NCBI GenBank assembly: GCA_963789265.1
Contig: CAWBKB010000001.1
Coordinates: forward strand, 128,001-192,000
Reading direction: 5' to 3'
Source of the DNA: an uncultured delta proteobacterium
GTDB taxonomy: Bacteria; Desulfobacterota; Desulfomonilia; Desulfomonilales; Desulfomonilaceae
DNA length: 64,000 bases
Shown: piece after piece, positions 12,461 through 64,000 of the stretch
Layout of the letters: the number at the start of each line of letters is the position of its first letter
Numbering within the stretch: position 1 is the stretch's first letter
The notes under the pieces: model-generated
The model's input: only the letters and a program-made list of their open reading frames with translations
What the model was told of the DNA's origin: nothing
Database searches by the model: none
Translations under genes and position numbers: made by a program

Positions 12461-13228
12461 TCACTTGGGCGTGAACCGTTCATACTGGTCTTCGATAATC
12501 GTTCCTCTCGGTTTCGACTGCTGCAGTATTTCAACCACGGATTTGTGACCACGTGCTTTTGCCCAGTCTAGTGCAGTTTTTCCATCCCTGGCTCTGACTT
12601 TGGTATTAGCTCCTTTCTGTAAGAGAATCTTAACAATCTCGGCCCTCCCAAAGCCCGCGGCCAAAATCAGTGGGGTCCATCCGTCATTTGATTTTGCTTC
12701 CACATTTGCGCCGGCCTTGAGAAGAGCTTCCACACATGGAACGTGGTTGGCCCTGATGGCGAGATGCAGAGCCGTCATCCCGTATTTGTCGGCCAAGTTT
12801 AGTAGCGTGCGGTTCTGTATCAGCAGTTCCGTGACGCCCGGCTGGCCGTACCACGAAGCTTGATGCAGAGCCGTTTCACCGGAATTATCCCGGATTTGAA
12901 GGTTTGCGCCTTTCTTGACGAGGAGATCGACCATCTTGACGTAGCCCCATTGCGATGCCTTGATCAGGGCCGTTGCACCATACTTATCTTTGGCATTTAT
13001 CGATGCACCTTTCCCTAAGAGCTGAGCCACTGCCTCGAGATTGTTGTTATCTGCTGCGAGCAACAGCTCATCTTCCAACTGTCCTTTGCCAAGAGCTGGT
13101 TGAGGTGCGTTCATCAATCCTCTCTGAGGTGGAGCCGAGTGTCGCATCTCCGGTCGGCCCTGGGCAAAAATGGAAACAGTCTGACCGACCAAAGACAGCA
13201 TAAGGACTACAAGCAAAACGTGCCTCAT
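12461..13228 (-). CDS. Secreted ankyrin-repeat protein
   Basis: Signal peptide MRHVLLVVLMLSLV; repeats GATALIKA, GETALHQA, GMTALHLA, GWTPLILA. Confidence 0.92.
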   Translation of the reverse strand: MRHVLLVVLMLSLVGQTVSIFAQGRPEMRHSAPPQRGLMNAPQPALGKGQLEDELLLAADNNNLEAVAQLLGKGASINAKDKYGATALIKASQWGYVKMVDLLVKKGANLQIRDNSGETALHQASWYGQPGVTELLIQNRTLLNLADKYGMTALHLAIRANHVPCVEALLKAGANVEAKSNDGWTPLILAAGFGRAEIVKILLQKGANTKVRARDGKTALDWAKARGHKSVVEILQQSKPRGTIIEDQYERFTPK

Positions 13229-13272
13229 ATCATGACTCCCTTCGCGCGACTGGGTTGGCAGTTGGAGCAAGC

Positions 13273-14040
13273 TTATTTGGGTACGAACCGATTACCGCTC
13301 CGAGGTGAGAAAGTATTCATGCCCTTGGTCGCTTGCTCCAGTATTTTCACAATATCCGTATGGCCGGCTTGTCTGGCGTGATCCATTGCGGTTAAGCCCT
13401 GGTTATCCTGACTTTTCGGATTTGCTCCTTTCTTCAGGAGCAAGCGGACGATTTCCGGCTGCCCCCACGCGGCGGCGCAAATCAACGGTGTCCATCCATT
13501 TTGGGTTTTCGCCTCCAAGTCAGCTTGTTTTTCTATCATCAAGTTGGCGATCTGCGACCTGCTCGTGCTAATGGCACTCATGAGAGGGGTCAGCCCCGAT
13601 TGGTTAGGAGCATTCACGTCAGCGCCACGGTCCAACAATATCTGGGCAATGTCCAGATGGCCCATTTCCGCACTCGTATGAAGGCAGCACCAACCCCCGT
13701 CATCTCGAGCATTCACATCTGCTCCCTTTTCCAAAAGGAGCTTCGCCATTTCGGGAAATCCTCCGTACGCAGCCCACTTAAGCGGCCACCAGCCGTCTTT
13801 ATCGCGGGCATCAACTTGAGCGCCTGCTTTCAGTGCCCGAAGCGCCCCTGTCAAATCATCGAATTGCGACGCTTCCAGCAAGCGGGCATCTTCATTAGCG
13901 CCCTTGGTGACAAGGCTGTTCTCGACGAGGCTGTGTTGCCTCTCGGGACTTGTTTGCTTGAAAAGCTCACCGGGCTGTTGCGGGAAGGCTTGCCCGACGC
14001 CCAGAAAAGTCAATAAGGCCACTAAAATTGCGTTACGCAT
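13273..14040 (-). CDS. Secreted ankyrin-repeat protein
   Basis: Signal peptide MRNAILVALLTFLGVGQA; about 5 ankyrin repeats. Confidence 0.92.
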   Translation of the reverse strand: MRNAILVALLTFLGVGQAFPQQPGELFKQTSPERQHSLVENSLVTKGANEDARLLEASQFDDLTGALRALKAGAQVDARDKDGWWPLKWAAYGGFPEMAKLLLEKGADVNARDDGGWCCLHTSAEMGHLDIAQILLDRGADVNAPNQSGLTPLMSAISTSRSQIANLMIEKQADLEAKTQNGWTPLICAAAWGQPEIVRLLLKKGANPKSQDNQGLTAMDHARQAGHTDIVKILEQATKGMNTFSPRSGNRFVPK

Positions 14041-14186
14041 TGCGTTCTCCCTGTCCGATTATTGCGACAAAACCCGGTGACGTACGCCTTGCATGGGTGA
14101 GATCAGGTGAAGCTCGCCACCCTCATTTGAAGATCTACCGGAGAAAGTGTCAATCTGTTTCCTCCACCGGAATGAACGGATTTGCT

Positions 14187-14312
14187 CACCACAGAGGCAC
14201 AGAGTTCACGGAGAAGACCTTTAATTTCACCACAGAGACACGGAGGACACTGAGAAAGAAAAATAAAGGAAAAATAATGGCTTTCTCTGTGAACTCTGTG
14301 TCTCTGTGGTTA
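14187..14312. repeat. ACCACAGAG(A/G)CACAGAG-type long inverted repeat downstream of a CHAT gene
   Basis: ACCACAGAGGCACAGAGTTCAC...GTGAACTCTGTGTCTCTGTGGT. Confidence 0.8.
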
Positions 14313-14326
14313 TTTTTGTCTTTCTA

Positions 14327-17200
14327 TCACTTCACTTCCCCCACCAAAATAAACGGAGCCCAGTAAAACGGATGCTCATACCCTTCCGACCTGATCTCTT
14401 TCCGGGCCATTTGAAGGGCCTCTAGCCGGTTCTTGCCCTGTTTGATGTAAGACAAGAATTTCTCAGTCATCTTTGTGGTAGATACCTCAGAGACGCTCCA
14501 CAGGCTCATGAGCACGGATTTTGCGCCCGCATATTGAAAGGCCCTGCCCATTCCCATCGTTCCTTCGCCCTTGACCTCACGTCCAAGACCTGTCTGGCAA
14601 GCGGTCAGCGCGACAACATCCGCGCTCAGGTCCAAGGACATCACCTCGGACATTCTCAGGAAGCCATCCTTATCTTTTGGCTGGCCCACAAGAGTCAAGA
14701 TCAGCACCGGCTCCATGATCCCCGGCAAGCTTTCACCCACATAGCCGTGAGTTGCAAATACGACAGTCCGGTACCTATCAAGCTTTTCCTTGAACAAAAG
14801 CGGCTTGGAGGCATGCATTCCCGTAAATAAATCGGTCAGATCGGGCTGCAGCTTCTTCAGCGCCGTACCCAGATCTCCGGTAAGCGGGAGCCTGTTGAAA
14901 ACAAGTCCTGTTTCATTCTTGATGGACATCAGCTTGCCCGAAACGGACGCGAGAAGCTTCTGACGGCGTTTACGCTCCGCTTGAAGAAGACGAGGATCAT
15001 CGGATTGAAATACCGGATCGGCCATCACAAGGGTCCGGGGACCGGTTTTCTTGGTGTGTCCCAGGGTTCTGGCCAGGGTAAGTGCTGTCAGTGACTGATA
15101 ATAGGATATGGGGTTTCTATCCCCAAAATAGGCTACACCTTCAGGGTACGGCCGCGGTCCTGAAGTATTCCAGCCTGTCCCTTCCTTTATGACCAGCATC
15201 TCAAACGGGAGCACTCCGAGCATCCCGTCCGGGAGAATGATGAGGGGTTGACCCTCCGGAATGGATGCCAGAAAATCACCCACGAGCATATCAAACAGCT
15301 TCTTTCCGGTTCCCAGGGCATCCTTGAAGGCCAGGAGATTTTTTGGCGTAATTTCATCCATGTCCAGAGGCTTGCGGAAGGACCGGACGAGTTGATTAAG
15401 CTCTTTCCTGGCAATGGGTTTGAAAAGGGACTTGACCAGGGTTTTCCCTTTGAGAAGCCACATACAGATCCCCGTGTCCGTGACCTGATAGGCAAGAGTC
15501 CACTCATCGGGTTTTACCGCGGTCTGCTCCACATCCATGGGCTGGGGATACTTTGTCGCGGCAAAGAGGGGGTATTCCTTGCGAAGCATATCAATGTGAG
15601 ATTGAAGCTCGCTTTTGACTTGTTTTATTTGGGGTTCAACCGAGTCAATGACCTCGCGGTTCCCCTTTTCGTACCCGGCCTGCCTTTTCTTGATGAGAGA
15701 TGCCAGGTGGTCGTTCAGTTGCAGGTCCTCCTTCAGGACATCTCCCGGGACCTTTACGGTTGCTTCGGAGGAGCGCCTGGACATGGATTCGGCAAAGATC
15801 CTTGCTTTGGTGTATTCCGATTGCTTGAGAGCCTCGACCGGCTTGTTCAGCTTCATGAGGACCCGGGTGAGTCCTTCATAAGGTTCGGTCCTCGCAAATC
15901 CCATTACCTTCACGTCGAAGAACCTGGCCCGTTCAGCCGCGGAGAGACCAGCCCTCATCTCCTCGGATTGATCCACGGCCTTGGTGAAATATTCCGCAGC
16001 CTTGGGATAGTCTTGCATGCCTTCGTACGCGAGTGCGAGACCGACCCATGAAACGAAAAGTGCGGTGGTGTCTTTTCGTTTCTCAGCAAATTTCAGAAGC
16101 CCTTCAGAACCCTCCTTTGCTTTTTGGTAGTCTCCTTCGAGGAGATGATCTCGGACGTACAAGGGGAAGTAGAGCGGCCCGCCGATAATGGATTTGGCGT
16201 ACGACTCGGCTCTCTCAATGTCGCCTAGGTCAAAATATACGTTTGCAATTTCGAATCGTAGGCGAGGGTGAAAGAACCCTGTTCTCTTCCATGCTGCAAC
16301 GGCTTTTTGCAGCATGTCCAAGGCCGCCTTGTAGTCACCTCGCTCAGCCTGTACACGTCCAATCTCTCTCAGCCCAAACCCTTCGCCCTGTGCGTCACCA
16401 ATCTGCTTGGCCAAATCAGCGCTCTTTTGGCAGCATTCAGTTGCCCGGTCGTACTGACCAATCTCGCGGTACACCCTTCCCAGCATAAGAAACGCACTGG
16501 ATTCCTCTCTTGGGCTCCCCGTTTTGTGGGCTATTTCCAAGGACCCCCGGTACGATTCGATTGCTTCGTGGTATTGCCCTCTATCCTGGTAAAGCGCTCC
16601 CAGCATAAGAAGAGCGTCGCCTTCATCCCCCACCTTCCCACTGCTTTTGTAGATGGCCAATGCCTTTGCGCAGAACTGAGCCGCCTTGTCCTCTTCGCCG
16701 ATGTCCCGGTATACGTGCGCCAGTCGCACAAGGGCGTCTGCTTCAATCTCCGAATCCATCAACTTCAGAGCCACACCGAGAGCTTTGTCTAGGTATTCAG
16801 CGGCCTTGCGACTCTGTCCCCAATTCGCGTACGTTGATCCCATGCCCAAAAGACTCTCGGCTTCATTTCTTTTGTCACCGAGCTTCCTTCTGATTACGAT
16901 GGCCTTCTCATAATATTTCGCCGCCTTATTCCATTGACTCAAGCGCTCATGAGAGCACCCCAAGTCATGGTTTGCATCCCCGATTCCTTTGACGAATCCT
17001 ACCCTCTCGAAGATTCTCAAAGTTCGCTCCACCCTCCCCATAGCCCTGTCCAAGTCGTCTTTGGAGTGAGTTTTACTCTCTATCGCCAAACCTTCCCTAT
17101 AAAGCCTCATTCCTTCTTCTTTGGACTGCGCCCACACCGGGCAACTCAGAAAGGTGAAAACATAGCAAAGAGCGGCAAGGACTGGAATTATCTTCTTCAT
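14327..17200 (-). CDS. Secreted TPR-CHAT protease 1
   Basis: Signal peptide; six 40-aa TPR-like units; catalytic His (FATHG) and Cys (LTACQT); ends HPFYWAPFILVG. Confidence 0.95.
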   Translation of the reverse strand: MKKIIPVLAALCYVFTFLSCPVWAQSKEEGMRLYREGLAIESKTHSKDDLDRAMGRVERTLRIFERVGFVKGIGDANHDLGCSHERLSQWNKAAKYYEKAIVIRRKLGDKRNEAESLLGMGSTYANWGQSRKAAEYLDKALGVALKLMDSEIEADALVRLAHVYRDIGEEDKAAQFCAKALAIYKSSGKVGDEGDALLMLGALYQDRGQYHEAIESYRGSLEIAHKTGSPREESSAFLMLGRVYREIGQYDRATECCQKSADLAKQIGDAQGEGFGLREIGRVQAERGDYKAALDMLQKAVAAWKRTGFFHPRLRFEIANVYFDLGDIERAESYAKSIIGGPLYFPLYVRDHLLEGDYQKAKEGSEGLLKFAEKRKDTTALFVSWVGLALAYEGMQDYPKAAEYFTKAVDQSEEMRAGLSAAERARFFDVKVMGFARTEPYEGLTRVLMKLNKPVEALKQSEYTKARIFAESMSRRSSEATVKVPGDVLKEDLQLNDHLASLIKKRQAGYEKGNREVIDSVEPQIKQVKSELQSHIDMLRKEYPLFAATKYPQPMDVEQTAVKPDEWTLAYQVTDTGICMWLLKGKTLVKSLFKPIARKELNQLVRSFRKPLDMDEITPKNLLAFKDALGTGKKLFDMLVGDFLASIPEGQPLIILPDGMLGVLPFEMLVIKEGTGWNTSGPRPYPEGVAYFGDRNPISYYQSLTALTLARTLGHTKKTGPRTLVMADPVFQSDDPRLLQAERKRRQKLLASVSGKLMSIKNETGLVFNRLPLTGDLGTALKKLQPDLTDLFTGMHASKPLLFKEKLDRYRTVVFATHGYVGESLPGIMEPVLILTLVGQPKDKDGFLRMSEVMSLDLSADVVALTACQTGLGREVKGEGTMGMGRAFQYAGAKSVLMSLWSVSEVSTTKMTEKFLSYIKQGKNRLEALQMARKEIRSEGYEHPFYWAPFILVGEVK

Positions 17201-17244: not shown

Positions 17245-17275
17245 GTTAGTGGCAAAAGACTGTTCAAGATGACAC
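17245..17275 (-). promoter_or_regulatory. Putative ECF promoter GTGTCA-N19-ACTAAC
   Basis: Motif shared by 10 sites, oriented toward the gene starting at 17200. Confidence 0.72.
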
Positions 17276-17575: not shown

Positions 17576-18226
17576 CTACTCCACGCCCAATCTCTTTGCC
17601 GGGGCTTTCTTTAACATCTCGGCTATTTCCGTGTACCCGAATAAATTGGCAAATTTTGCCGCATCAACACCTTGACGATCCTTGAGCGCGGGATTTGCCC
17701 CTTTTGCCAGCAGCTCTCTGACTACCGCCACCCTGCCGCTCGTGGCCGCGAACATCAAGGCCGACCAACCCGATTTCTGGGTCGCGTTCACGTCTGCCCC
17801 TTTTTCCAAAAGGAGTTTGACCACATCCGGGTAACCTTCTCGACTGGCCGCCATAAGAGCCGTAATGGCATCTTTGGTCTTAAGATTGGTATCTGCCCCT
17901 TTGTCCAAGAGAAGTTGGACTATCTGGATGAAACCCCGTTGAGAAGCATGAATCAGCGCGGTCGCTCCATTCCTGTCCCTGGCATCGACGCGGGCCCCTT
18001 GGTCCAATGCAGCGCCCACACCCGAGAAGAAGCCGGATGCGGCGTGCCTTATCATCTTATTTTCAGCTTGTCCCTTACTTATCAACCCGGAGAGGATTTC
18101 GGTCATATCCTGCTGGAGCTGGTCATAGGGCAGGGGAAGAGGATCTTCTCCGTGAGAGGGGAGCGCACCAACGAAGACGAACAATATCGCAGCCAACCAA
18201 AGAGCCTGTCTGGCCATGAGGATCAC
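17576..18226 (-). CDS. Secreted ankyrin-repeat protein
   Basis: Signal peptide; GATALIHA, ITALMAA, GWSALMFA repeats. Confidence 0.9.
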   Translation of the reverse strand: MILMARQALWLAAILFVFVGALPSHGEDPLPLPYDQLQQDMTEILSGLISKGQAENKMIRHAASGFFSGVGAALDQGARVDARDRNGATALIHASQRGFIQIVQLLLDKGADTNLKTKDAITALMAASREGYPDVVKLLLEKGADVNATQKSGWSALMFAATSGRVAVVRELLAKGANPALKDRQGVDAAKFANLFGYTEIAEMLKKAPAKRLGVE

Positions 18227-18275
18227 TCCTTCGGACGTTGTGTGTATTTATCGGCACCCTCCGATAGGTGCTAGC

Positions 18276-18635
18276 TTAACCCCGCGGGACGCGGGGTTCC
18301 CCCCTTTTGTAAAGGGGGGCAGGGGGGATTTTTGGATAACCTATTGAAAATCCCCCTAAATCCCCCTTTAGAAAAGGGGGACTTTGATCGCCCTCGGCCT
18401 GCATGGACCTCCTGGAAAGGAACGAAATTGCCTTAAGTAAACGCGAATGCGCGGGACGCTGGAATCCGCTGTAGGGGCAGACCCATGTGTCTGCCCCTAC
18501 ATGCGCCGGTTCAAGTCCGGGGTGACGAATGACCGGCAATCCCGCGTTCCGCGCGGGACGGTCCCACCAAGGAGATTGCTTCGCTTCGCTCGCAATGACA
18601 ATCTCTTGCCGGCAGGGACGCCGGCACTACCGTGC
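18276..18635. repeat. Cluster of REP-like palindromic elements
   Basis: AAATCCCCCTAAATCCCCCTTTAGAAAAGGGGG; GTAGGGGCAGACCCATGTGTCTGCCCCTAC; GAGATTGCTTCGCTTCGCTCGCAATGAC. Confidence 0.75.
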
Positions 18636-18673
18636 AACCGGCACCGTACCTTGTGAAACGCGGTAGTAAGGGC

Positions 18674-21600
18674 TTACCTTTTGTGCTTCTTCCACTTCTC
18701 TTTGAGCAACTTCCAACTGGCTTCTGTGGGAGTCATTGATTCCCCTTTCCCGAGAAATGCAGCAGGGTCGACGGTATCCAACACAACCAGCCTGGTAATG
18801 TAATTCGCGGCCGGGGTTGGTGCCTTTTTCTTCTGAGGTAGGATCCCGAGGTCGTCCGCCAGAGCTACCACCGGTCCGGGTCCTTCTACTCCTTTGGGAA
18901 TCGATTGTTTCAACGGTCGATGGGTCGCGACGAGGAGCATTCTTTCAGATCCCGGTTTTCCCGTAGCTTTGAGCGTCAGCCGGCACCACTCGTCGCTATG
19001 CACGAGCTTCGGCTGAGCCCGATCGACGGGAAAAAGCAATTGCAACGCACCGGACGCATCCATCTTGAAAGCATACAGATAAACATCGCGCGACGGCCGA
19101 ACTCGCACCTCGAACGGCTTTCCCAGCGCAAATTCGGGTAATCCGGTAATGTCCGGGCTATATTTGACCTCCAGCGAGGCTGAGCCCCGCTTTGTGAGTC
19201 CTCGGATGCGGCTCAATACGCCAACTGTTTTTATGGATTCGCTGATTTGTTGCGCCAGCGCCTGCGTATTTGTACCGGCGTCCAGCTTGAACCTTCCGTA
19301 GACCTCGTTCCTGTGGTTCATGACAAGGATCTCATTCCCGTCTGTGGTGTCGCCGAAATTGACGGTAACGTCGTCGAGCTGGTTGAAAGAGGTCACAGTT
19401 CTGAACAAGTTGCTTGAGGCAATGTTCCGGTCCACAAGTTTTGCGACAGCCATCATAGATTCGTTGCCCATAGCCTTTACGAGAAGTCTAACGGGAGTCT
19501 TGTCCAGGGACTTTGTTACGGGATGTTTGCCTACCCTGGTCTTGTACATTCCTCTTCCAAACGTCGAAGCGTACAGAGTGTCACCTTTCATGATCAGGTG
19601 CGTCACCGGCGCAAAAGCCAATCCTCTGTTCATGGGTTCCCAGTGCTCGCCGAGGTCGGCGGTGGTATATACTCCTAAATCGGTTCCCAGATAGAGCCTC
19701 TTGGGATCTCTGGGATCGAATATCACAGAGTTGACGGGCAGGTTCGTCGGCAGATCCGAGGTTACGGCCTTCCAGCTTTTCCCACCATCTGTGGTTCGCC
19801 AGGCCTGTTTCACTCCTTGCCTCGTATAAGTGACAAACACGCAATTCGGATCTTTCGGCCTTACCGAAATGCAGCTTATCCACGCACCGCGCGGAAGCGC
19901 ATCCTGCCCGACACGCTCAAATTTGGCTTCCTGAGCATCCGTATCCCGGCACACGAACAAAGCCCCGTCTGAGGACCCAACCCAGACTGTCCTGCTATTG
20001 GAGGGGTCCAACGCGATCCACGATATTGCCACCCAGGGAGAAGGCGCTCCCGCTGTGAGGTTTCCCGAGATGGCTTGCCAGGGGGCCGGAAGCTGTTTTC
20101 CATACGCTCTGAATTTGGTGTTGCGGTAGAGTCGGGTGGTCCCAGCCAGGGCATGATTTCCATCTTTGGGGTCTACGATGAACGGCGCAATAAACAGCCT
20201 GTAGTCCCTCTTATCAATTCCATTGGTGACAAACGCGAATTGATTTCCGTGAAGCCGCCAAATTTGGAGGTGATAGATCGATCCATACTTCAAGCTAGGG
20301 ACCTGCTGATCCCAAGCGCAAAATCCTCCGTCACCTCCGCCTGCCAACGCCCAGTCTTTAGGGTCTCCGCCCAGCCAAACAGGTGTGGCATTGTCCTGTG
20401 CACCGGCAATGATGCTCTCTTTTTGGGGATGCAGCGCAAAATTATAGAATTGGGTAATCGGTAACTGGGCTTTGGACTGGTTCCAGGTGCGGCCCGAGTC
20501 CCGACTTACAAACAGGCCGCCATCCGTGCATGCATAGACTGTCGAGGGCTTGAAAGGCGAGAATTGGATCTTGTGTATGTCCGCGTGAACATAGGAAAGA
20601 TTCCGGCTGTCGAAAAAATGGACATTCCATCTGGACACCTTTTCTACTGTTTTCCCTCCATCTTCGCTCCTGAACAAGTCTATCCCCCCAAGGATTATGA
20701 GGTTCGAATTCTTCGGGTCCACACCAATTGCATGTGCATACCATTGCTGTCCCCCAGTGTACTTTGTTTGCTGCTTCTCGTCGAAATAGGCTAGATAATC
20801 GAGCCCACCCGGAACTCGCCTGTACATTTGCTGCCAGGATGCCCCTCGATCTTTGGACCGGTATAGCGCAAGAGCGCCGCCTGTTTCCGCTTGGCCGGGA
20901 ACTTGCGGATTTCCTATCGAGGCGTATATTGTGCCGTCGCTTGCCCCGATTCCGAGAGCAATCCTTCCCGGCTGCACCGTGAGGTCCGGAAATTGGACCT
21001 TCTTCCAGGAACTTTCGGCGCCGTCCTTGTGACTCACAATGACCGTACCCGGAAGATGAGCCCACCCCTGGCCATAGGAGACGTAAAGCACGTCCGGATG
21101 CGTAGGATCGATGACCATGTCGGTTACCATCCCGCCTTTGCCCTCGATGGTGAAAGTGCGCTCCCAGGTTCTTCCGTCATCGGTCGAGCGCAGAATGCCA
21201 TAGTGATCTCCGACCAGAACAACTCCGGGCCGGGCCGGGTTCGTTACTATCTGATAGATCGGGATCGAGACCAAGGCGGGACCGCCCCCCGCGGTCTTCA
21301 CCGGTTCCCAAGTCTCGCCCGCGTCTTCGCTCAGGAGAATCCCCGCACCAATCGGTCGGGTCGTTCCCGAGCCAAACACATCTCCGCTGCCGGCAAACAT
21401 CTTTGACTGGTTTTTAGTTGACAAAGCCAGGGTATCAACAGTGAGCACGGAGAGAAAATCCCGACTTATGTTCCAGGTCTTCCCTCCATCACCGGTTTTC
21501 CAGATCCCCCCGCCCGGCAAAGCTATCCACATCACGGAGGGATCTTTCGGACGAAAGAGCAGGTCGGTGATTCGCCCCCCCACAAACGCCGGCCCCAACG

Positions 21601-21989
21601 AGGTCCACTGAGGATCGGGGGTTTTTCTGAAATCCTTTATCCTTTTGTCGAGGAGAATCGTGGACTCTTTGGCCTGAAGATAGGCAACGGGATCGAACTT
21701 GCCATTTGCGCCAACCCTTTGTCTGAATCTCAATTCAGCCAATTCCTCAGGGAACATGCCGCGTTGCAGGCGATTCCATTTGGCCTCGGCCTCCTCGCTC
21801 TCGTCCTCGACACCCGGAAGACGAATATGCACTTTTTGGGCCGATTGATTTTCAATATCTCTCGAAGGGAGATTTGAAATAGCAAAATGTTTCAATTTCA
21901 ATTCGGCTGAGCATTCAGATTGCATAAGTGCCGGCGCTAAGAGGACAAGAAACAGCCAGGAATAAGTTCAAGCGAAGGCTCGTGCTCAT
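18674..21989 (-). CDS. Secreted BNR/Asp-box beta-propeller protein with C-terminal DUF4384-like domain (1-bp indel in the signal peptide)
   Basis: Many (S/T)xDxGxTW boxes; tail VRVRPSRDVYLYAF...LLFP...GSERMLLVAT. ATG 21989 gives a signal peptide if one T is removed near 21949. Confidence 0.82.
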
Positions 21990-23031: not shown

Positions 23032-23041
23032 GGAGAACTGC

Positions 23042-24837: not shown

Positions 24838-24838
24838 G

Positions 24839-26907: not shown

Positions 26908-26925
26908 GGATGCCTCTCCTTTCGC

Positions 26926-51579: not shown

Positions 51580-51604
51580 GAGCTCGTGGTCATTGTCAAC
51601 AAAT

Positions 51605-55723: not shown

Positions 55724-55800
55724 GGACAATCCCCATATTGGAAATATTCAGAATCCTGTATTCAGCATCCAAGGTCCCCCAAAGAGGGAGCATCTATTGC

Positions 55801-55832
55801 TTTAGTAGCAACCTCGCCCGAAAAAATGACAC
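55801..55832 (-). promoter_or_regulatory. Putative ECF promoter GTGTCA-N20-ACTAAA
   Basis: Shared motif; the spacer contains a T6 run. Confidence 0.68.
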
Positions 55833-55969: not shown

Positions 55970-56485
55970 CTAGGTGGGTACAGCGTTGCTGCGCTTCCGC
56001 AGCCACGAGCGAGCAAACATTATCCCGGAAAATACAGGTGCAACTGCCCCGAATAAGCTTGCCAGGAACGAGATAACTTTCAGTCCGGTCCCCATTAATG
56101 CGTCTTCGGATGGTTTGGGCTTAACTTTCTCCAACAGATTACGGTAGGTATCCAACCGTTGTCGGAGAATCGTCTCATTGTGCTTCAGTTTTTCAAGTTC
56201 CCCATTCAGCCTTTCAATTTCCTTTTTTCTCTGCCCGGCTAATCTCGAAAATCCCTTTTCTTTTGCGGTATTGGTCTTGGCGGTATCAAGGGTCGTCTGA
56301 ACGCTGTCAATATCCTGCCGGGTATGAGCCACGACTTTGGCTAGTCTCTCCGCACGGAGAGTCATGCTTATGCGATTAACTGACGGAATGGTGAAAAAAA
56401 CCAGGCATAGAAGACCTATGCTCAGAATAATAACGAATGTAAGCGACAAAATTGGGCGTCTGGATTTTCCTGAATTCGAACTCAT
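55970..56485 (-). CDS. Small membrane protein: TM, coiled coil, C-terminal hydrophobic segment
   Basis: GGGGAGGAG RBS; N-terminal TM; heptad-like middle; ALMGTGLKVISFLASLFGAVAPVFSGIMFARSWLRKR. Confidence 0.7.
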   Translation of the reverse strand: MSSNSGKSRRPILSLTFVIILSIGLLCLVFFTIPSVNRISMTLRAERLAKVVAHTRQDIDSVQTTLDTAKTNTAKEKGFSRLAGQRKKEIERLNGELEKLKHNETILRQRLDTYRNLLEKVKPKPSEDALMGTGLKVISFLASLFGAVAPVFSGIMFARSWLRKRSNAVPT

Positions 56486-56616
56486 GTCTCCTCCCCATTT
56501 CCACGGATCCAATACTCTGTTGACCCGACTGTATCCAATTTCAATCCGGCGGACCTGAACAGCCGCAAACAAGCTACTGCGTATCCTCCAACTAATATGA
56601 ACAAAGCCCATTCTTG

Positions 56617-56688
56617 ACCACGGAGACACAGAGTTCACAAACAAATCCAATATTTTTCTTTCTCAGTGTCCTCTGTGTCTCCGTGGTG
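56617..56688. repeat. ACCAC(G)GAG-type inverted repeat downstream of a CHAT gene
   Basis: ACCACGGAGACACAGAG...CTCTGTGTCTCCGTGGT. Confidence 0.8.
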
Positions 56689-56704: not shown

Positions 56705-59700
56705 TCAGTTCACTTCGCCCACCAGGATAAAAGACGCCCAGTAAAACGGGTGCTTGTATCCAGCATTCCTTACATCCGCCCTTGCCGACTTCAGGGCATC
56801 CAGCTTGTTCTTCCCTTCCTTGAGGTGTTCAAAGAATTTTTCCGTCAACATCACGGACGCGTTTTCCGCCACGGACCAGAGACTCATCAGCACGGACTTG
56901 GCCCCCGCGAACTGGAACGCCTTGCCCATGCTCATTACGCCTTCACCGGCCAAATTATGCCCCAGGCCAGTTTCGCAGGCGGTGAGGGCCACCATGCCGG
57001 CGTTGAGTTTCATACCCATCACTTCGGACATCGTGAGAAAACAGTCCTTTTCCTTGGGTTGACCTACTAACGACATAACTATGACCGGTTCACGGATTTC
57101 AGGTATGTCGTTCCCGAAATAACCGTGGGTGGCAAAGACGATGGAACCATAATCCGTAAGCGGTTTATCGAACAGGATGGATTTCTTCGCCTGTAGGCCG
57201 GTGAAAAGAGTAGTTTTATCGGGATTCAATTTCTTGAGGTATTCCGCGAGCTCGGTGGTCTTTTCAAGTCTGGGAAAGATTAAGCCCGTCTGGTCTTTGA
57301 TTGACATGAGCTTTTCAGGCAATGCAGCCAATAATTTCTGTTGTTTCTTAGCCGCAACCGTCTTAACGCGAGGATCATCCGGGCCGAATACTGGATCGGC
57401 GAGAACCAACATCCTGCCTCCCGGCTTGCTTTGCGACCTCTCTTTGCGGACCATAGTCAAGGATGTGATGGATTCGTAATAGCTTATGGGATATACGTCG
57501 CCAAGATAAGTAAGACCATCGGGGTACGGCATGGTGTTACCTTCTTTCCATGTCGCTTTTCCCGACACGACAAGGGCTTCAAATGGAAGCGTCGCCAGAA
57601 TGCCGTCCGGGATGATTATCAGGGGAGTCCCCTCCGGAACATCAGCCAGGACCGCGGTCAACAGCCTCCTGTACAGCTTCTTGCCCAAATCGACATCAAA
57701 TTTGACTTTCGGATTGTCAGGCTCCTCGAACGGTTCACGAAACTTCTTTATGTCTCGTTCCAGGTCCTTCATTTTCCATCTTTCGGAGAGGGTCCGGTCC
57801 GGAACTTTGTCTCTGATCAGTTGTATTGCGATCTCTTGCTCGGACACTTGAAAGGTGATCACGCACTCTTCGGGCTTGAGCAGAGATTGCTGGGGCGATA
57901 CCGTTCGGGATACTTCACCCACGCGTATTTCTCGTACTTGCTACGGAGCATTTCAACGAATTTTTCCTTTTCCGCCTCCGCATCCCGGACCAATTTGCTG
58001 AGGTTGTCAAATCGCGCCGGATTCTTTTCTTTGTCGGTCTTTTGCAATTGTTTTTTCAGAGCGGCGACCCCGGTCACGACTTCATCTTCTTTTTTGAGGA
58101 CCTCATCAGGCACGCCCGCGAATCGCGATCTCTGGGATATGGCGTCCGCGAATGCTCTTGCCCGGGTGGCTTCTATCGAATCTATGGCTTGCAAGCCTTT
58201 GCCCAGCTTGCACTTCACTCGCGTCAAACCTTTGGCGGGCTCGGAACGCTGAAAGCCGCAGACCTTGACATCGAAGAAATCCTTTCTTTCAGATGGCAGG
58301 AGGCTCGATCTCATCTCTTCGGTGAGGTTCATCCCCTTTTCATAGTACTTTTCGGCTTTCTCATAGTTTCCCAATCCCTCGTAAACTTCTCCCAGGCCGG
58401 TGTAGGCTGTGAAAAGACTGTCGACATTTCCACTCTTCTGTGCCGAAGCAAGAAGCTTCTCGTAGTTCGTTTTGGCTTTACCATATTCGAGTTTCAGCAA
58501 ATGCAGTTTCCCAGAAGCCCAAATTAAATGCTTGCCTTTCAGGACCTTTGCTGCTTCGGCCAATTCCCCTTTTTCCATGTAAGTCCAGGCAATCAAAGCC
58601 TTAACGTGAAGCGGGGATGCACCAATTTTGGTCTTGATTTCAAGCGCCTTTTGGTAGCTCGTGAGCGCATCGTCATATTTCCCGTAGTCGAAGCACACTC
58701 GACCGATATTTGCAAAATTACTTGATTCACTGTTCTGATCGCCCATGGCCTTGGCCAACCTGCAAGCTTTCTCATAATTTTCCAGGGCTTTTTGGCGCTG
58801 ACCCCAGGTGTGGTAAATACTTCCCATCAAACCACAACTCCAGGCCTCCCCTTGGCTGTCGCCGATCTCCCTTTGCGTTGCCAGCGCTTTGTTACAGTAT
58901 TTTAATGCCTTTTGATACTGCCCCCCAAAAAAATAGATTGTCCCAGCGTTGTTTAAAGTTGTCGCCTCCGCTTTTCGTTCGCCAATTTTCCCGTCGATCT
59001 CAAGAGCCTTTTCGTAATTCTCCAAGGCCTTCTGATACTGCCCCCAAGCTGCGTAAACGATGGCCATGTCATTTAGCTGAATCCCTTCTTCTCTAACGCC
59101 ACCAACTCTTCGCTGAATGTCCAAGGCCCTTTTGTGGCACTCCAGGGCTTTCTTATATTGTCCCAACTGACAGTAGGCCGCACCAAGACCGCCCATAGCG
59201 CTGCCCTCACCCGCGACATTGCCTATCTTCTTATCAATCGCCAGGCCTTTTTCATAATTTTCCAAGGCCTTTTGATAATCACCCATAAACTTATAGGTCC
59301 AGCCTATGCCAACTAATACATTTCCCTGGTCTCCTATGCTCTTGAGCCGCTTGCTAATTGCAAGGGATTTTTCATAACAATCCAGAGCCTTATGGTATTG
59401 TCCCATACCTCTGTAGGTAAATGCCATTTGGCTGAGAGCCCATCCTTCCCCTCGCAGATTGGAGACCTTCCGTTGCAAGTTCAGGGCTTTCTCCTGGTAT
59501 TCCAATGCCTTTTGAAGCCGGCCCAAATACCTATAAGCGGAGCCTATGTTAGCCAGCGTCGTGGCTTGCCCTTTGAGGTTTCCGACTTTCTTGTGTAGAG
59601 CAAGGGCCTGTACATAATACTCTAGTGCCTGCCCATACCGGCTCATGCCAGAATAAACGGAGCCTACGTTAGCCAGCGTCGTGGCTTGCCCTTTGAGATT

Positions 59701-60021
59701 TCCGACTTTCTTATGTAGAACCAGGGCTTTCTCATAGTATTCCAAAGCCTGCCGATTCTGACCCAGGCTAGCATAAATTATGGCGATGTTGTTCAGCGTA
59801 CCTCCCTGCCACTTCGATCCGGTTTTGCGGAAAATCACTAAAGCCTGTTGATATTTTTGCAGCGCCTTTTGCCGGTCGTCGTTGGAACGGGCTTTAACCC
59901 TCAATTCGTTCGCCTGCTTGAAAAGGGCAATCCCTTCCTTCTGTGATTGGGCTGACCCAACGAAAGGAAAAAGAACGAACAGCATCCATAAAACAGCGAT
60001 CAAGGCGCATATTCTTTTCAT
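56705..60021 (-). CDS. Secreted TPR-CHAT protease 6 (frameshift near 57900)
   Basis: Signal peptide; ten units; FATHG and LTACET; ends HPFYWASFILVGEVN. Confidence 0.92.
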
Positions 60022-60115
60022 GGAAAACCCCCTCCTTCTTGCAGCACTTAAGTTGGAAATGTCCTGAATTTCATGCCCGTCGGTCGGGGCCTCAAAGACC
60101 GTGGCATCAGTATGT

Positions 60116-60146
60116 TTTAGTAGGGAACGCGACTTGAAAGTGACAT
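60116..60146 (-). promoter_or_regulatory. Putative ECF promoter ATGTCA-N19-ACTAAA
   Basis: Shared motif upstream of protease 6. Confidence 0.7.
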
Positions 60147-60200
60147 AACTCATTCCATATTGTCAAGAAATAAGGGCGACCAATGAGCTGTTGGGCCACC

Positions 60201-60231
60201 TTGTCACTATCTGAAGCTTTTTACCACTAAG
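60201..60231 (+). promoter_or_regulatory. Putative ECF promoter TTGTCA-N19-ACTAAG
   Basis: Shared motif, divergent from the previous site, upstream of the caspase-Sel1 gene. Confidence 0.7.
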
Positions 60232-60420
60232 GTGATCGGGGCAATTCAAGTGTCACGCGGATGTTATTCTTTCCGGGGCTCCGATGACTGCATCTCACTC
60301 ATAAGTGAGAAGCCGCGTGGACCCGAAAAATGGTCTTGACCGATTGATTGAGCCTGAAGTATCCTGGGATAATAACACAACAGTGACTTTGCCATGCTGC
60401 CGGCTGAAACAGGGGGAAAA

Positions 60421-62456
60421 ATGAAACCCGCAGCCTCTCCGAAAGAATCAACGGTTTGCACAGCCTACCCACGGCTTTTTTTCGTCCTGCTGATTCTCAT
60501 TTTCCTTTTCTACTCTCCGTGTGCAGCCGATAACCAAACTCCTAAGGCTATCCGGCGCAGTTCCCCGGCGGCCGGCGCATCTACAAAGGCTCAAAAAAGA
60601 GTCGCGCTGGTTATTGGAAATAATGAATACAAGGATGCTCCCTTACGGAATCCCGCCCATGATGCCGAGGATATTGCAAACGTCCTGCGAGGCCTGGGAT
60701 TCACAGTCTTGACAAAGATAAACGCGAATCAGAGAGAAATTGAAGACTCGGTCAGGGAATTTGTTCGGGAGATTCAAAATGGTGATGTAGCGTTATTTTA
60801 CTTCTCCGGGCATGGGGTTCAAGTTCACGGAGACAATTATTTAATTCCCGTTGGGGTTTCGATAGCCTCTGAGGCTGATGTTCGGTACAAGACTGTACCA
60901 GCGGGCTATATTCTTGCCGAAATGGACGAATCCAGGAACCGGACCAATATTTTTATCCTGGATGCGTGTCGGAATAATCCTTTCAAGAGCTTCCGATCGT
61001 TGAGCAAAGGTTTGACCATGATGGATGCCCCTGTCGGGACATTTATCGCCTATGCCACAGCCCCCGGGTCGGTGGCCGCGGACGGCACAGGCCGAAACAG
61101 CCCATACGCTGAGCATCTCATGCAGGCCATGAAGCTGAAGGGCATGAAGATCGAAGAGGTATTTAAGCAGGTGTTACGGGATGTCCGCAAAGATACAGGA
61201 GGAAAACAGGTCCCCTGGACTGCTTCATCACTGCAAGATGATTTTTGGTTCAATCCGTCAGCAAAGGCAGGCGTGCAAGAGGCTTCTCTCCCATCTTCAA
61301 CATCACCTGAAGTGACTTCGGTCCTCTCCACGAAATACAGAGAAAAAGCAGAGCGACTTGTGACTCTGCTGGTCACTCGCGGGGAAGCTGCAAGCCGGGA
61401 AGAGTTGAATCGCATGTATAAAGACCCGAAAGCAGTGAAATGGTTCCGCGAGGCAGGTGAGCAAGGCGATCCTGTGGCCCAATTAATGTTGGGTCGGATG
61501 TTCGCTCTAGGACTCGAGGTTCCTAAAGATTATGATGAGGCCGTCAAGTGGTACAGGAAAGCCGCCGAACAAGGAAATACTATGGGCCAAAGCAATCTGG
61601 GGTGGATGTGCGCGAATGGCTTCGGAGTTGCCAAAGATTATTCAGAGGCGGTGAAGTGGTATAGAAAGTCCGCCGATCAAGGAAATGCATGGGGGCAAAA
61701 CAATCTGGGGTGGATGTACGCACAAGGCAAGGGAATTGCTAAGGATTATGAAGAGGCAGTTAAGTGGTATAAGAAATCTGCCGATCAAGGAAATTCCCTG
61801 GCTCAAGGCAACTTGGGGTTTATGTACAAAAATGGTTATGGAGTAGCAAAGGACCGCACAGAAGCAATCAAGTGGTATAGAAAGGCTGCCGACCAAGGCA
61901 ATAAAAGCGCTAAGAAGGAGTTGCAGAAACTGGGCAACAGAGGGCTCTCCTTGGGGTACAGAGAGAAGGCTGAACGTGCTGGGACTTTGGTTGCCGCTAA
62001 CGGCCGAGCTGAGGAAGAGTTGATGATGTATAAGGACCCGGAAATGGTGAAATGGTTTCGCCGGGCGGGTCAGCTAGGGGATGCTGTGGCTCAGGTGTGC
62101 TTAGGCCGGATGTTTGAGCTGGGACTGGGGGTCCCCAGGGATTATCATGAGGCGGTGCAGTGGTTCAAGAAAGCCGCGTATCAAGGAAATTCCAGGGCTC
62201 AGAACAACATGGGGTTGATGTGCAGGAGCGGTACAGGGAGTTCCCAAGGATTATCATGAGGCAGTGAGGTGGTTCAAGAAAGCCGCCGAACAAGGACAAG
62301 CGAGTGCTCAAGTCAATTTGGGGTGGATGTACCAAAATGGTTATGGAGTCCACAAGGACCGTACAGAAGCCATCAAATGGTACAAAAAAGGCGGCCCATC
62401 AAGGCAATGAAGATGCCGAGAAGTTCTTGCGGAAAATGGGAGTGGCTGTCAAGTGA
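60421..62456 (+). CDS. Secreted caspase-family + Sel1-repeat protein (indels near 62237 and 62385)
   Basis: Leader; RVALVIGN, FYFSGHG, LDACRNNP; many KWYRKAAEQG...LGWMY repeats continuing across the frameshifts. Confidence 0.9.
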
Positions 62457-62528
62457 TTGTCTGCTTGTAGCTTCGATCAACCTATACAAAAAGGTGACCG
62501 GCGTCCGTAGTTATCCGGGAGAGATAAA

Positions 62529-63263
62529 ATGAAGAGCTTGATGAACCAGAGTTGGCGATACTTAGCGGCTACTCTTGCCTTGAACCTGGCTACAGCCTTG
62601 CTCCTCTCAAATGCATCAGCGGCATCAACAGATCTGGCGCACGGACTGGCCTCCATCGGGCAACCCGGCCCCGCGGCAGTCAAGTTCACGACAAAAACGA
62701 ACAAACAGCAAGGGGGAGTTTTCCAGCCGGGCGATAATGTGATTATCTACTTGACTACCAATCAACGTGCATATTTGACCATATTGGCCATAGCATCGGA
62801 TGGGAGCGTCACAGTAGTGTTGCCGAATAAATTGATGCAGAGCTGTCTGATTCAACCGAATAAGCTTTACGCTCTGTTCGGAGAGGATTCTCCGGTGCAT
62901 CTGATAATCGGGAAAAGGCAGCGCAAAGGCAAACTGTTGCTCTACTTGAGCCCGACTCCACTTGTGCTGAATCCTCTGGAAATACCGAAGGACGACAAGT
63001 GGCTTAAAATTGCCCCGAGCGACCGCCGGAAGCTTCAGATTCTCAAAGAAAAGCTTGAATCTATAGCACAAAATGAAGGATTTAACCGAGCAACTGTTCT
63101 TTTCCACGGTAAGGCAGGCAGAAACCTGGAAATTAGGCTTACGGAAGCGGCTACCAATTTGAGCAGTGAAGCAATTCCTGTCGGCACGGAAAGTTCGATT
63201 CCCGAAACGCTTACTGGGGGCCCGGGCAGAAACTCGCCACCAAAAACCAACTCGAACGAGTAG
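62529..63263 (+). CDS. Secreted DUF4384-like protein
   Basis: Signal peptide; FQPGDNV...AYLTILAIASDGSVTVVLPN. Confidence 0.75.
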   Translation: MKSLMNQSWRYLAATLALNLATALLLSNASAASTDLAHGLASIGQPGPAAVKFTTKTNKQQGGVFQPGDNVIIYLTTNQRAYLTILAIASDGSVTVVLPNKLMQSCLIQPNKLYALFGEDSPVHLIIGKRQRKGKLLLYLSPTPLVLNPLEIPKDDKWLKIAPSDRRKLQILKEKLESIAQNEGFNRATVLFHGKAGRNLEIRLTEAATNLSSEAIPVGTESSIPETLTGGPGRNSPPKTNSNE

Positions 63264-63275
63264 GGCCGGATTCCT

Positions 63276-64000
63276 GTGGCAGATCACTTTGGAGCGTTCC
63301 TCAAAAAGAATAAAACATACGCGGCTTGCGTTTGTTTTTCCGTTGTCTGGGGCTTGTTAGCTACTCTCCTTATCTTTCTGTTTCCATCTCCCTTCGAGAA
63401 TTTGAATTTTAAGATATATGACTGGCAGCTCGCGATCGATCCCGTTCGGAGTTATTCGTCGGCCATTGTTCACGTAGACATTGATGATCGGGCTGTCAAA
63501 GAATACGGCCAGTGGCCCTGGGACAGGTCACTCAGCGCTAAGATAGTTGAAAAACTTTCTGAATTCGGGGCTGGGGCAATAGCATTCGACATCTTTTACT
63601 CCGCCGCGGGAAAGAGCAAAGAAGGCAATGATGCCTTCTTTGGAGCGATCAAACGAGCGGGGAATGTTGTCTCAGCCACTGGCCTTGGTCGGCTGACCGA
63701 CATCTCCGATAAGTCCATAGAGTTGCCCCGGGATCGTTCCAAGGCGGATGCACTTTACGATAAGGGGTGGTCTTTGGCGGTTCCCGGGACCTTTCACTTG
63801 TTACGGGTTTACAAGCTGCAAGATTCTGCACTACCGCTATTGCCAATAATTCAAACGTCGAGCGGAGTCGGCCACATTGCGGCTAATCCGGACAGGGATG
63901 GCGTTTATCGAAGGGTAGCGCTTCTCGTGAGAGTGGAAGACCGCTGCATCCCCAGCTTGAGTCTTTCGACATTGATGACCTATTGGAAGCTTACCGCCGA
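63276..64000 (+). CDS. CHASE2 sensor-domain membrane protein (runs off the window)
   Basis: Own translation from GTG 63276: TM helix, IVHVDIDD, GQWPWDR, IAFDI, PDRDGVYRR. Confidence 0.9.
   Translation, partial: MADHFGAFLKKNKTYAACVCFSVVWGLLATLLIFLFPSPFENLNFKIYDWQLAIDPVRSYSSAIVHVDIDDRAVKEYGQWPWDRSLSAKIVEKLSEFGAGAIAFDIFYSAAGKSKEGNDAFFGAIKRAGNVVSATGLGRLTDISDKSIELPRDRSKADALYDKGWSLAVPGTFHLLRVYKLQDSALPLLPIIQTSSGVGHIAANPDRDGVYRRVALLVRVEDRCIPSLSLSTLMTYWKLTA

Follow-up and report, generated by a model that had tools for sequence, protein, structure and literature searches.

The stretch analysed here, called the window throughout, comprises 64 kb (positions 128,001 to 192,000 of contig CAWBKB010000001.1) of the 6.06-Mb, nine-contig genome of an uncultured soil bacterium of the Desulfomonilaceae, related to sulfate reducers. 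Window positions 12461-64000 form a protease-rich island of about 50 kb, in which nearly all genes across 12461-60153 lie on the minus strand. In a Pfam profile scan over 48 window open reading frames (ORFs), the island was found to hold six genes that encode a CHAT domain behind an array of tetratricopeptide repeats (TPR), five Peptidase_C14 genes, four OmpA-domain genes (three of them with TPRs detected by Pfam) and three ankyrin-repeat genes, together with DUF4384 genes, a BNR/sortilin propeller with DUF4384, a DUF3160-like gene, an M15 D-Ala-D-Ala dipeptidase gene and a CHASE2 gene. Its single regulatory pair consists of a sigma factor of the extracytoplasmic function (ECF) type and a zinc-type anti-sigma factor, and we argue that the island is probably the regulon of this one sigma factor. 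An earlier note on this DNA had listed the six TPR-CHAT and five C14 genes with His/Cys motifs, the TPR-OmpA, DUF4384-like, ankyrin, beta-propeller and CHASE2 genes interleaved with them, and the sigma/anti-sigma pair inside one operon; the Pfam scan and the motif counts given below bear out this inventory.

The regulatory pair and its operon

The sigma operon runs on the minus strand in the order TPR-OmpA (41364-42518), OmpA, sigma, anti-sigma, C14. Its second gene (40302-41348) encodes an OmpA-domain protein with a helical N-domain and lies directly upstream of the sigma gene, as an OmpA gene likewise does in the related loci L025, L030, L033, L034 and L035. The sigma gene (39674-40387) has a probable start at 40294, which would give a product of 206 amino acids (aa), matching the lengths of its orthologues (198-240 aa). 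Pfam scores for the product are 36.9 bits for Sigma70_r2 (cut-off 24) and 26.8 bits for Sigma70_r4_2 (cut-off 25.7), with no match to region 3 and with 19.9 bits for Sigma70_ECF, under the cut-off of 21.1; by these profiles it is predicted to be an ECF (group IV) sigma-70 factor. The last gene of the operon, an intact C14-DUF4384 gene (36892-38538), lies directly downstream of the anti-sigma gene.

The anti-sigma gene (38635-39672, minus strand) begins 1 nt past the sigma stop and encodes a protein of 345 aa with two HxxxCxxC motifs, one membrane helix, placed at about residues 158-178 or, by a second estimate, at 161-175, and a periplasmic part of about 165 aa. Common to fourteen homologues are the two HxxxCxxC motifs, the membrane helix, a short conserved S-x3-W stretch, a linker that varies and, at the C-terminus, a domain of about 135 aa; H32-x3-C36-x2-C39 is invariant in all 14, and a zf-HC2 match was found in one orthologue. 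A protein search gave eight close homologues with names no more specific than "anti-sigma factor", and a narrower alignment search gave four full-length relatives, all from metagenome-assembled genomes labelled Desulfomonilaceae or "delta proteobacterium".

In an AlphaFold2 (AF2) model of the anti-sigma factor (mean pLDDT 75.9), the periplasmic domain reaches 85-93 and linker residues 198-210 fall below 50; K202 in this linker is invariant among the 11 closer homologues. The top match in a structure search (VIA wide) with the model was the TolB N-terminal domain (1c5k_A; Z 10.3, rmsd 3.0, 117 residues aligned), followed by lipoprotein folds of the LpoB, CsgG, PelC and HpaA types at Z 7-8. Because Z values of 7-8 are common background, the TolB match alone stands out; the cytoplasmic domain of RseA was a weak match (1or7_F, Z 6.0). 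Pfam found no CHAT or TPR match in the protein. The predicted sensor (residues 211-345) is, as modelled, a TolB-N/LpoB-like alpha/beta domain and neither DUF4384 nor CHAT. A complex prediction for C14-DUF4384 (residues 60-548) with the periplasmic part of the anti-sigma factor (182-345) scored 0.00, which carries no weight either way.

The anti-sigma helix and TolB-N-like domain also match within 700-860-aa frames of related genomes (G034:C154, G020:C98, G031:C10, G007:C10 and others), which suggests that the same sensor domain may be fused to other output domains in relatives.

A promoter-like motif shared across the island

The upstream regions of the island share no exact 8-10-mers. A gapped search found TGTCA...ACTA in six of 16 upstream regions, against at most four in 20 shuffles, and in the window as a whole TGTCA-N13-20-ACTA occurs nine times, against a shuffle mean of 1.81 and maximum of 6, a count that none of 100 shuffles reached; the claim that the units share a promoter-like motif, made in the earlier note, stands on these counts. 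The nine sites are near-equal in length and read TGTCA[C/T/A]-N16-C[C/T/G]ACTAA (consensus TGTCAC-N16-CnACTAA), the boxes being kept and the spacers unrelated.

Eight of the nine sites aim at a gene start 13-251 nt away. On the minus strand, one site (42532-42559) heads the sigma operon itself, with the TPR-OmpA start at 42518 or 42473, and four belong to TPR-CHAT genes: TGTCAT-N16-CCACTA at 17247-17274, 46 nt upstream of the start at 17200; 45378-45405, upstream of the start at 45286; 55803-55831, upstream of the start at 55723; and 60118-60145, for the start at 60021. The other two minus-strand sites lie 251 nt upstream of the DUF4384-C14 start at 28368 (28620-28647) and 213 nt upstream of the DUF3160-like start at 30909 (31123-31150), the latter at the same position as in L025, L027 and L029. 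Back-to-back with 60118-60145, a plus-strand site (60202-60229) stands before the C14-Sel1 start at 60394. The ninth site (45660-45687, plus strand) is an orphan with no recognisable gene behind it; it is the highest-scoring copy (30.1 bits), faces a 390-nt gene-free stretch toward the M15 3' end, and could belong to a small RNA or to an antisense transcript, or could be a relic. A weak copy at 51548-51580 (15.8 bits), which resembles the site at 55803, precedes the TPR-CHAT gene 48621-51521.

We built a weight matrix from the nine window sites. Across the 6.06 Mb it gives 12 matches at 22 bits or more, comprising the nine (by construction), a site at C1:193901 and two weaker ones; lowering the threshold to 16 and to 13 bits raises the count to 29 and 131. 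The pattern TGTCA-N19/20-ACTAA occurs 25 times in the genome, and ten of these occurrences fall within the 49 kb of C1:145,246-193,931, or 0.8% of the genome, a nearly exclusive distribution. One of the 15 matches elsewhere is near-identical to the site at 45378 and is found 72 nt upstream of a further TPR-CHAT gene, one outside the island.

The tenth island site stands 1.9 kb past the window and heads the operon C1:193903-196658, which encodes a 122-aa protein, a chagasin-family inhibitor (I42), a 139-aa protein and a papain-family C1 peptidase; by its position, this operon would bring a third protease class with its own inhibitor into the regulon. The near-identical copy outside the island belongs to a second locus, C1:1267193-1277506, where the TPR-CHAT gene behind it is followed by a gene for a protease of family S41 (Ctp-like, PDZ) with eight Sel1 repeats fused to it, and by one more TPR-CHAT gene.

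Sigma-54 promoters have the consensus TGGCAC-N5-TTGC, with GG and GC elements 10 nt apart. We rejected a sigma-54 reading of the island motif, which has GT in place of GG and TTGC about 13 nt, not 5 nt, behind the first box. The -35 box and spacer are like those of the ECF41 promoter as it appears in excerpts of PMC3426412 (TGTCACA at -35, spacer 16 +/- 1), whereas the -10 box of the island motif differs.

Conservation in related genomes

Eleven other genomes of the family have full-length anti-sigma orthologues, at a total of 14 loci (31-44% identity, E 1e-48 to 1e-86). Among 301 sampled genomes of the phylum, matches over the full length are confined to the Desulfomonilaceae, where all six sampled genomes have them, and the match in two other genomes covers only the cytoplasmic N-terminal part.

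For comparison of the motif we took 14 loci with long flanks (258,624 nt), namely 13 orthologous loci (L024-L036) and the genome's own paralogue on contig C5 (L037). These contain 14 matrix matches of at least 15 bits, 13 of which precede module genes in the correct orientation: the sigma gene in L024, L026, L028, L032 and L036, the DUF3160-like gene in L025 and L027, a C14 gene in L024 and L030, an OmpA gene in L025 and L030, a TPR-CHAT gene in L026, and a gene with two DUF4384 domains (DUF4384x2) in L036. A looser pattern adds sites before DUF3160 in L029, TPR-CHAT in L030 and DUF4384 in L035. This comparative pattern is the best evidence that the motif may be the promoter of this sigma factor.

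Gene order is conserved in other genera along with the motif. L027, L029 and L030 show the order DUF3160-like / (OmpA) / sigma / anti-sigma / C14 / DUF4384x2 / OmpA / long C14-DUF4384 / TPR-OmpA, of which L024, L025 and L032-L036 retain a part, and the window has the conserved set in two blocks, one from DUF3160 to TPR-OmpA (22027-30909) and one with OmpA, sigma, anti-sigma and C14 (36892-41348). In L027 and L029 the module also includes genes for a serpin and for DUF4384-trypsin proteins. The neighbourhood survey proposed in the earlier note thus finds conserved co-occurrence of the sigma/anti-sigma pair with C14, DUF4384, OmpA and DUF3160-like genes and, less often, with TPR-CHAT. Since only four of the 13 orthologous long-flank loci have a TPR-CHAT gene of full length within 10 kb, TPR-CHAT is accessory to a C14/DUF4384/OmpA/DUF3160 core.

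An 87-nt stretch upstream of the DUF4384-C14 gene (28383-28469) is 76% identical to the C14 3' end at 36891-36977, the two forming repeat family D15; it looks like a relic of an ancestral order sigma / anti-sigma / C14 / DUF4384-C14, as in L030.

We tallied the genes downstream of anti-sigma at 26 homologous loci other than the window, 14 orthologous and 12 distantly paralogous. A C14 or TPR-CHAT gene lies near and downstream of the anti-sigma gene in 18 of the 26, mostly as the next gene: C14 in eight orthologous and four paralogous loci, TPR-CHAT in two orthologous loci (one behind an opposite-strand gene) and three paralogous ones (L056-L058), and DUF4384x2 followed by C14 in one orthologous locus. 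Two paralogous loci have an ankyrin gene there, and one orthologous locus reaches its contig end. No protease was seen downstream in two orthologous loci (L028 and L031) or in three paralogous loci, the latter three with only 1.5 kb of flank. The paralogous locus in the genome itself (C5:609000-613300, L037) encodes an ECF sigma factor, an anti-sigma factor of the island's type (29% identity) and a C14 protein fused to ankyrin repeats, and is without the island motif.

Catalytic domains and predicted export

The six TPR-CHAT genes, all on the minus strand, score 137-182 bits with the Pfam CHAT profile, and FATHGY and LTAC[QE]TG, which in this family hold the His and Cys catalytic positions, are invariant in all six. 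Three genes are intact: 14327-17200 (957 aa, predicted exported, N-terminus MKKIIPVLAAL, CHAT 173 bits with TPR and dyad motifs), 42659-45370 (likely start 45286) and 48621-51521. The other three are spread over several frames: 32678-36027 over three (35167-36027, 33372-35144 and 32678-33379), 52885-55729 over two and 56705-60153 over two. Of 17 CHAT matches genome-wide, nine are in the window and comprise the six genes, a C-terminal fragment of 82 aa (36244-36492, minus strand), the second piece of a split gene and a weak cross-hit.

Peptidase_C14 scores 21.7-153 bits across the island genes, with SGHG and D[AS]C[HR] kept in all five genes and with H166 and C217 invariant across eight orthologues. 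Besides the C14-DUF4384 gene of the sigma operon, these are a long, frameshifted C14-DUF4384 gene (23042-24785, minus strand; His part in ORF 24489-24785, Cys part and DUF4384 in ORF 23042-24418, in different frames), an intact DUF4384-C14 gene (26926-28368, minus strand) and two C14-Sel1 genes, one with an in-frame TAG (46886-48574, minus strand) and one intact (60394-62259, plus strand). Six of the seven C14 matches in the genome lie in the window, in its five genes, and the seventh follows the paralogous sigma/anti-sigma pair on contig C5; five of the genome's six C14 genes thus sit in the window.

An AF2 model of the TPR-CHAT protein 42659-45286 (pLDDT 81.7, pTM 0.75) was searched with Foldseek. 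The top matches span E 6e-12 to 1e-10 and include Csx29 (8d9f_A, E 6.1e-12; 7xsq_B, TM 0.41/0.50), separase (9hn0_B, E 3.4e-11) and DdvA (8rw5, E 8.8e-11, TM 0.39). Global TM values are just 0.3-0.5 because the TPR arm is placed differently, and the modelled protein resembles solved members of the separase/Csx29 type in its overall fold. A sequence search of the Protein Data Bank (PDB) gave TPR matches only for TPR-CHAT and no match for C14-DUF4384.

Some TPR-CHAT genes are close paralogues in their CHAT halves. Those at 48621-49601 and 52885-53859 share 97% protein identity, against 72% for their TPR halves, and those at 42659-43630 and 32678-33379 share 93.5%, against 67%; these values point to recent duplication or gene conversion.

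The short linker motifs that the earlier note had described as shared among the proteins hold up in part. K-A-[IV]-R-R occurs 5-10 residues past the predicted signal-peptide end in three of the five C14 proteins (36892, 47762 and 60394), which belong to two subfamilies, as TKAIRRS in the protein of 36892-38538 and as TPKAIRRSS in that of 60394-62259; no other island protein has it. Among orthologues, L025 has two copies and weaker forms occur elsewhere. Orthocaspases prefer Arg or Lys at the cleavage site. The dibasic K-A-[IV]-R-R would suit this preference and could, by analogy, be a processing site.

Export was predicted with a crude heuristic of our own, which looks for a hydrophobic, uncharged 10-mer behind a basic n-region. 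In line with the earlier note, which saw signal peptides in nearly all the TPR-CHAT and C14 genes, 23 of the 27 island proteins are positive, the negatives being the sigma factor, the anti-sigma factor, the propeller protein and a C14 fragment that is cut. Among proteins of the orthologous loci the heuristic is positive for four of five CHAT proteins (one of the five being a 164-aa fragment), seven of eight DUF3160-like proteins (one of the eight being a 114-aa fragment), 15 of 16 OmpA proteins, 12 of 14 DUF4384 proteins and 12 of 21 C14 proteins, several of the C14 misses being cut ORFs or proteins with the hydrophobic stretch farther from the first Met. The sigma and anti-sigma factors serve as internal negatives (0/12 and 0/13). 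An extracytoplasmic location of the island proteins is supported in silico by these signal-peptide-like N-termini, which are kept in orthologues.

Other genes, spacers and interrupted reading frames

Downstream of the TPR-CHAT gene 14327-17200, two ankyrin-repeat proteins with signal-peptide-like N-termini are encoded at 12461-13270 and 13273-14040 (Ank E 1e-42 and 1e-57), and a third, with a hydrophobic N-terminus, lies at 17576-18226. The BNR/sortilin-type beta-propeller gene with C-terminal DUF4384 (18674-21925) has no signal peptide at the called start. It is followed, in order of position, by a gene for TPR-OmpA (22027-23031; OmpA_C-like, peptidoglycan-binding), at the orthologous position in L027, L029 and L030, by a second TPR-OmpA gene (24839-25822), by a gene for a predicted exported protein with two DUF4384 domains (25819-26907; 158.9 bits, two stretches) and by the predicted exported, frameshifted DUF3160-like gene (29193-30909; ORFs 29560-30909 and 29193-29585). 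Farther along are a predicted exported, VanX-like M15 D-Ala-D-Ala dipeptidase (46077-46781; Peptidase_M15 160 bits) and a 226-aa protein to which no family was given, with hydrophobic segments and a coiled-coil-like middle (55970-56650). All of these lie on the minus strand. The plus strand carries a predicted exported DUF4384 protein (62529-63263) and a CHASE2 membrane sensor gene (63276-64000), which extends beyond the end of the window and has a frameshift in this assembly.

Between gene units, the spacers 18227-18673, 28369-29192, 32074-32677 and 36493-36891 are occupied by dispersed repeats with 130-252 BLAST hits genome-wide. Among the 48 scanned window ORFs Pfam matched no cas or SAVED family, and PADLOC found no known defence system in the island, only generic TPR, caspase, MotB and ankyrin matches. 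Public runs that contain the stretch are soil metagenomes only.

Seven island genes are interrupted in the assembly. Three TPR-CHAT genes (32678-36027, 52885-55729 and 56705-60153, the last with a frameshift near 57900) hold four frame changes in total; the long C14-DUF4384, DUF3160-like and CHASE2 genes are also frameshifted, and the C14-Sel1 gene 46886-48574 has the in-frame TAG. A 130-aa tail ORF of the DUF3160-like gene aligns to residues 462-589 of a 595-aa orthologue at 48% identity. Near 53967, where the TPR-CHAT gene 52885-55729 has an extra base, a contig of another run of the same study (X2, depth 2) is without one letter; the repeat register relative to the intact paralogue shifts by one base between 53882 and 53968 (repeat families D10 and D11), and by frame arithmetic the shorter form at 53967 restores the reading frame. 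At least that break may therefore stem from an error of assembly or reflect a difference between strains.

The TAG codon (47762-47764) lies inside an otherwise conserved C14-Sel1 gene, and none of the contigs from other runs was shown to cover it. We rejected a pyrrolysine reading, as the genome has no tRNA with anticodon CTA (tRNA-Pyl), only tRNA-Sec.

Discussion

We read the island as a regulon that a single, autoregulated ECF sigma factor controls in this Desulfomonilaceae bacterium, with a probability of roughly 0.7. The sigma factor would be held at the membrane by its zinc-type, single-pass anti-sigma factor with the TolB-N/LpoB-like periplasmic sensor until an envelope signal inactivates the latter, probably through the usual regulated anti-sigma proteolysis, and frees the sigma factor. 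The freed sigma factor would read TGTCAC-N16-CnACTAA promoters in front of about ten units, including that of its own operon, in a positive transcriptional feedback. Its targets in the window would be four TPR-CHAT genes (with the weaker copy before a fifth), two C14 units and the DUF3160-like gene, and beyond the window the chagasin-inhibitor/papain operon and another TPR-CHAT gene elsewhere in the genome. The output may be a burst of exported caspase-fold cysteine proteases, putatively active in the periplasm, accompanied by OmpA-domain proteins that bind peptidoglycan and by repeat scaffolds (TPR, Sel1, ankyrin, DUF4384), and inhibitors in the regulon would restrain the proteases, chagasin here and serpin in relatives. 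The proteases are most likely mainly the output of the switch.

Several observations weigh against this interpretation. The -10 box CnACTAA is unlike the CGTC common in ECF promoters, for two sites the next start is over 200 nt away, and the orphan site has no gene behind it. Four genes, TPR-CHAT 32678-36027, C14 36892-38538, ankyrin 17576-18226 and DUF4384 62529-63263, are without a motif of their own. Among the comparison loci, L031, L034 and L037 have no motif, L035 has none at the matrix threshold, and L033 has one weak match, before an ORF of no named family. Six genomes of the same genus are without a close anti-sigma orthologue (best E 3e-15 to 7.5e-15 in four, no match in two), so the island is patchily distributed; C14 matches in these genomes show 38-52% identity and are limited to the catalytic domain. 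Signal peptides were called by the crude heuristic only, no RNA run among the public runs contains the stretch, and the seven interruptions mean that part of the system may be decaying.

The closest known systems are DdvS/DdvA of Myxococcus and the gene context of ECF54. In excerpts of PMC11506125, DdvA is the only characterised anti-sigma factor with a periplasmic TPR-CHAT, and DdvA-like fusions are placed only in Myxococcota and one Comamonas. As those excerpts describe it, that system shares with the island an ECF sigma factor, an N-terminal zinc-type anti-sigma domain, one membrane helix with a flexible linker behind it, and a caspase-fold TPR-CHAT placed in the periplasm (as predicted here) and genetically tied to the pair. 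The island TPR-CHAT model, moreover, matches DdvA chains about as well as Csx29 and separase. The periplasmic part of the island anti-sigma factor, however, is about 165 aa with a predicted TolB-N/LpoB-like fold and without CHAT or TPR, and the protein is therefore not a DdvA-type member. Unlike the system in those excerpts, the island has proteases that are separate, many and mostly C14 rather than CHAT, and a putative regulon of proteases and envelope proteins, not of clustered regularly interspaced short palindromic repeats (CRISPR) or cyclic-oligonucleotide-based antiphage signalling (CBASS). By analogy, the island anti-sigma factor may work like DdvA with a separate protease.

The last idea leads to an alternative that we consider possible though rather unlikely, namely that the protease encoded beside the anti-sigma factor, C14-DUF4384 36892-38538 here and a TPR-CHAT in some relatives, would be a signal-activated site-1 protease. 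It would clip the juxtamembrane linker, an S2P protease would finish the cut, and the sigma factor would induce more protease, a simpler form of what the earlier note had in mind. The position of a protease near and downstream of anti-sigma in 18 of 26 loci, with L056, L057 and L058 as sets of sigma, anti-sigma and TPR-CHAT, agrees with this course, yet such adjacency is equally expected of a first target gene, two of 14 orthologous loci (L028 and L031) are without a protease near the pair, and an ankyrin protein takes its place in two paralogous loci. The low-confidence linker 198-210 with its invariant K202 offers a candidate cleavage region, and the genome has M50/S2P genes; the anti-sigma factor, however, does not contain the K-A-[IV]-R-R seen in C14 proteins. 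A precedent is DdvA, whose periplasmic TPR-CHAT is proposed, in the excerpts of PMC11506125, to cut its own linker before RseP acts. The broader proposition that Desulfomonilaceae sigma/anti-sigma pairs are hard-wired to an exported caspase-fold site-1 protease, in effect an unfused DdvA, seems doubtful to us; in that case the island would be a self-amplifying periplasmic proteolytic switch, because the sigma factor would induce its own operon and ten further protease units.

It is improbable, in our view, that the motif belongs to another regulator or is a relic of duplicated upstream regions, with the clustering of genes due to paralogue expansion in a variable, partly decaying island. The seven interrupted genes, the spacers filled by dispersed repeats, the missing close orthologues in the same genus and the fact that some sites precede paralogues and could be mutual copies (55803 and 51548 are alike) are consistent with such a history. 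The motif nevertheless precedes non-homologous genes (DUF3160-like, C14, OmpA, the chagasin operon and TPR-CHAT) with unrelated spacers, is kept before the sigma gene in five orthologous loci of other genera, and has ECF-promoter geometry, with a 6-nt box, a 16-nt spacer and a 6-nt box in one orientation; nor does the sigma-54 reading offer another regulator.

We think it very improbable that TPR sensors trigger CHAT proteases, which trigger C14 caspases, which cleave the anti-sigma factor so that the sigma factor feeds back on all of them, the interpretation in the earlier note: one promoter motif is common to both protease classes, the dibasic K-A-[IV]-R-R could be a processing site in three C14 proteins, and CHAT protease cascades of the cytoplasm are published for type III CRISPR, but the order of steps has no specific support, TPR-CHAT is full-length at only four of 13 orthologous loci so that the conserved core works without it, and the six paralogues, with C-termini 93-97% identical, look like recent duplication rather than distinct tiers. 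ECF control, extracytoplasmic location and conserved co-occurrence, which belonged to the same interpretation, are supported in silico.

For the reading that we prefer, a regulon of one autoregulated sigma factor, other known systems provide partial parallels. Actinobacterial ECF54, as the supplement of PMC7826278 records (citing Huang et al. 2015), has TPR-CHAT proteins, subtilases and carboxypeptidase-regulatory-like domains in its context; like the island sigma factor it is conserved beside TPR-CHAT and other protease genes, with suggested roles in regulation or response. Unlike the island pair, ECF54 is listed there without an anti-sigma factor and with the predicted promoter GTATCAG / CTCC, and C14, DUF4384, OmpA and DUF3160 are unreported in those entries on its context. 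The same supplement notes that some ECF25 anti-sigma factors carry DUF4384, and the main text of this ECF re-classification makes no mention of caspase, CHAT, OmpA, peptidase or DUF4384. Given these precedents for exported CHAT proteins and for CHAT with ECF sigma factors (DdvA and ECF54), the system is less unprecedented than the earlier note had assumed. In literature searches on ECF sigma factors, CHAT and caspase contexts we found no published description of this module.

Craspase resembles the island in its TPR-CHAT fold, its His-Cys dyad and, thematically, its link between a CHAT protease and sigma control; it is cytoplasmic, RNA-guided and CRISPR-bound, whereas the island proteins carry predicted signal peptides and have no cas or SAVED neighbours. 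RpoE and RseA, with DegS and RseP, exemplify regulated proteolysis of a single-pass anti-sigma factor. The island pair is similar in its single-pass anti-sigma factor, its probable proteolytic release and its putatively autoregulated ECF operon, and differs in its sensor domain and regulon and in that the module encodes no DegS-like PDZ protease. Cyanobacterial orthocaspases, which are C14 proteins, occur with DUF4384 and other partner domains (PMC7475262, PMC6426788 and PMC8283722); as excerpts of these papers describe them, they share with the island proteins a p20-type C14 domain that has an HC dyad and is joined to DUF4384, Sel1 or other repeats. The excerpts mention no dedicated sigma/anti-sigma pair or shared promoter, whereas the island genes are clustered and putatively co-regulated.

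The island extends the DdvA idea to a separate protease, a different phylum and a different sensor domain. Were the sigma/anti-sigma pairs of the Desulfomonilaceae indeed hard-wired to an exported site-1 protease, the outcome would be the first bacterial cascade of the caspase type to act outside the cytoplasm, with envelope defence or controlled self-destruction as possible uses. Bacterial relatives of caspases, the C14 orthocaspases and CHAT proteins, are abundant, and their functions are almost unknown outside the CRISPR-linked cases. With a defined regulator, a promoter motif and a gene set, the island gives a testable handle on the exported members of this group.

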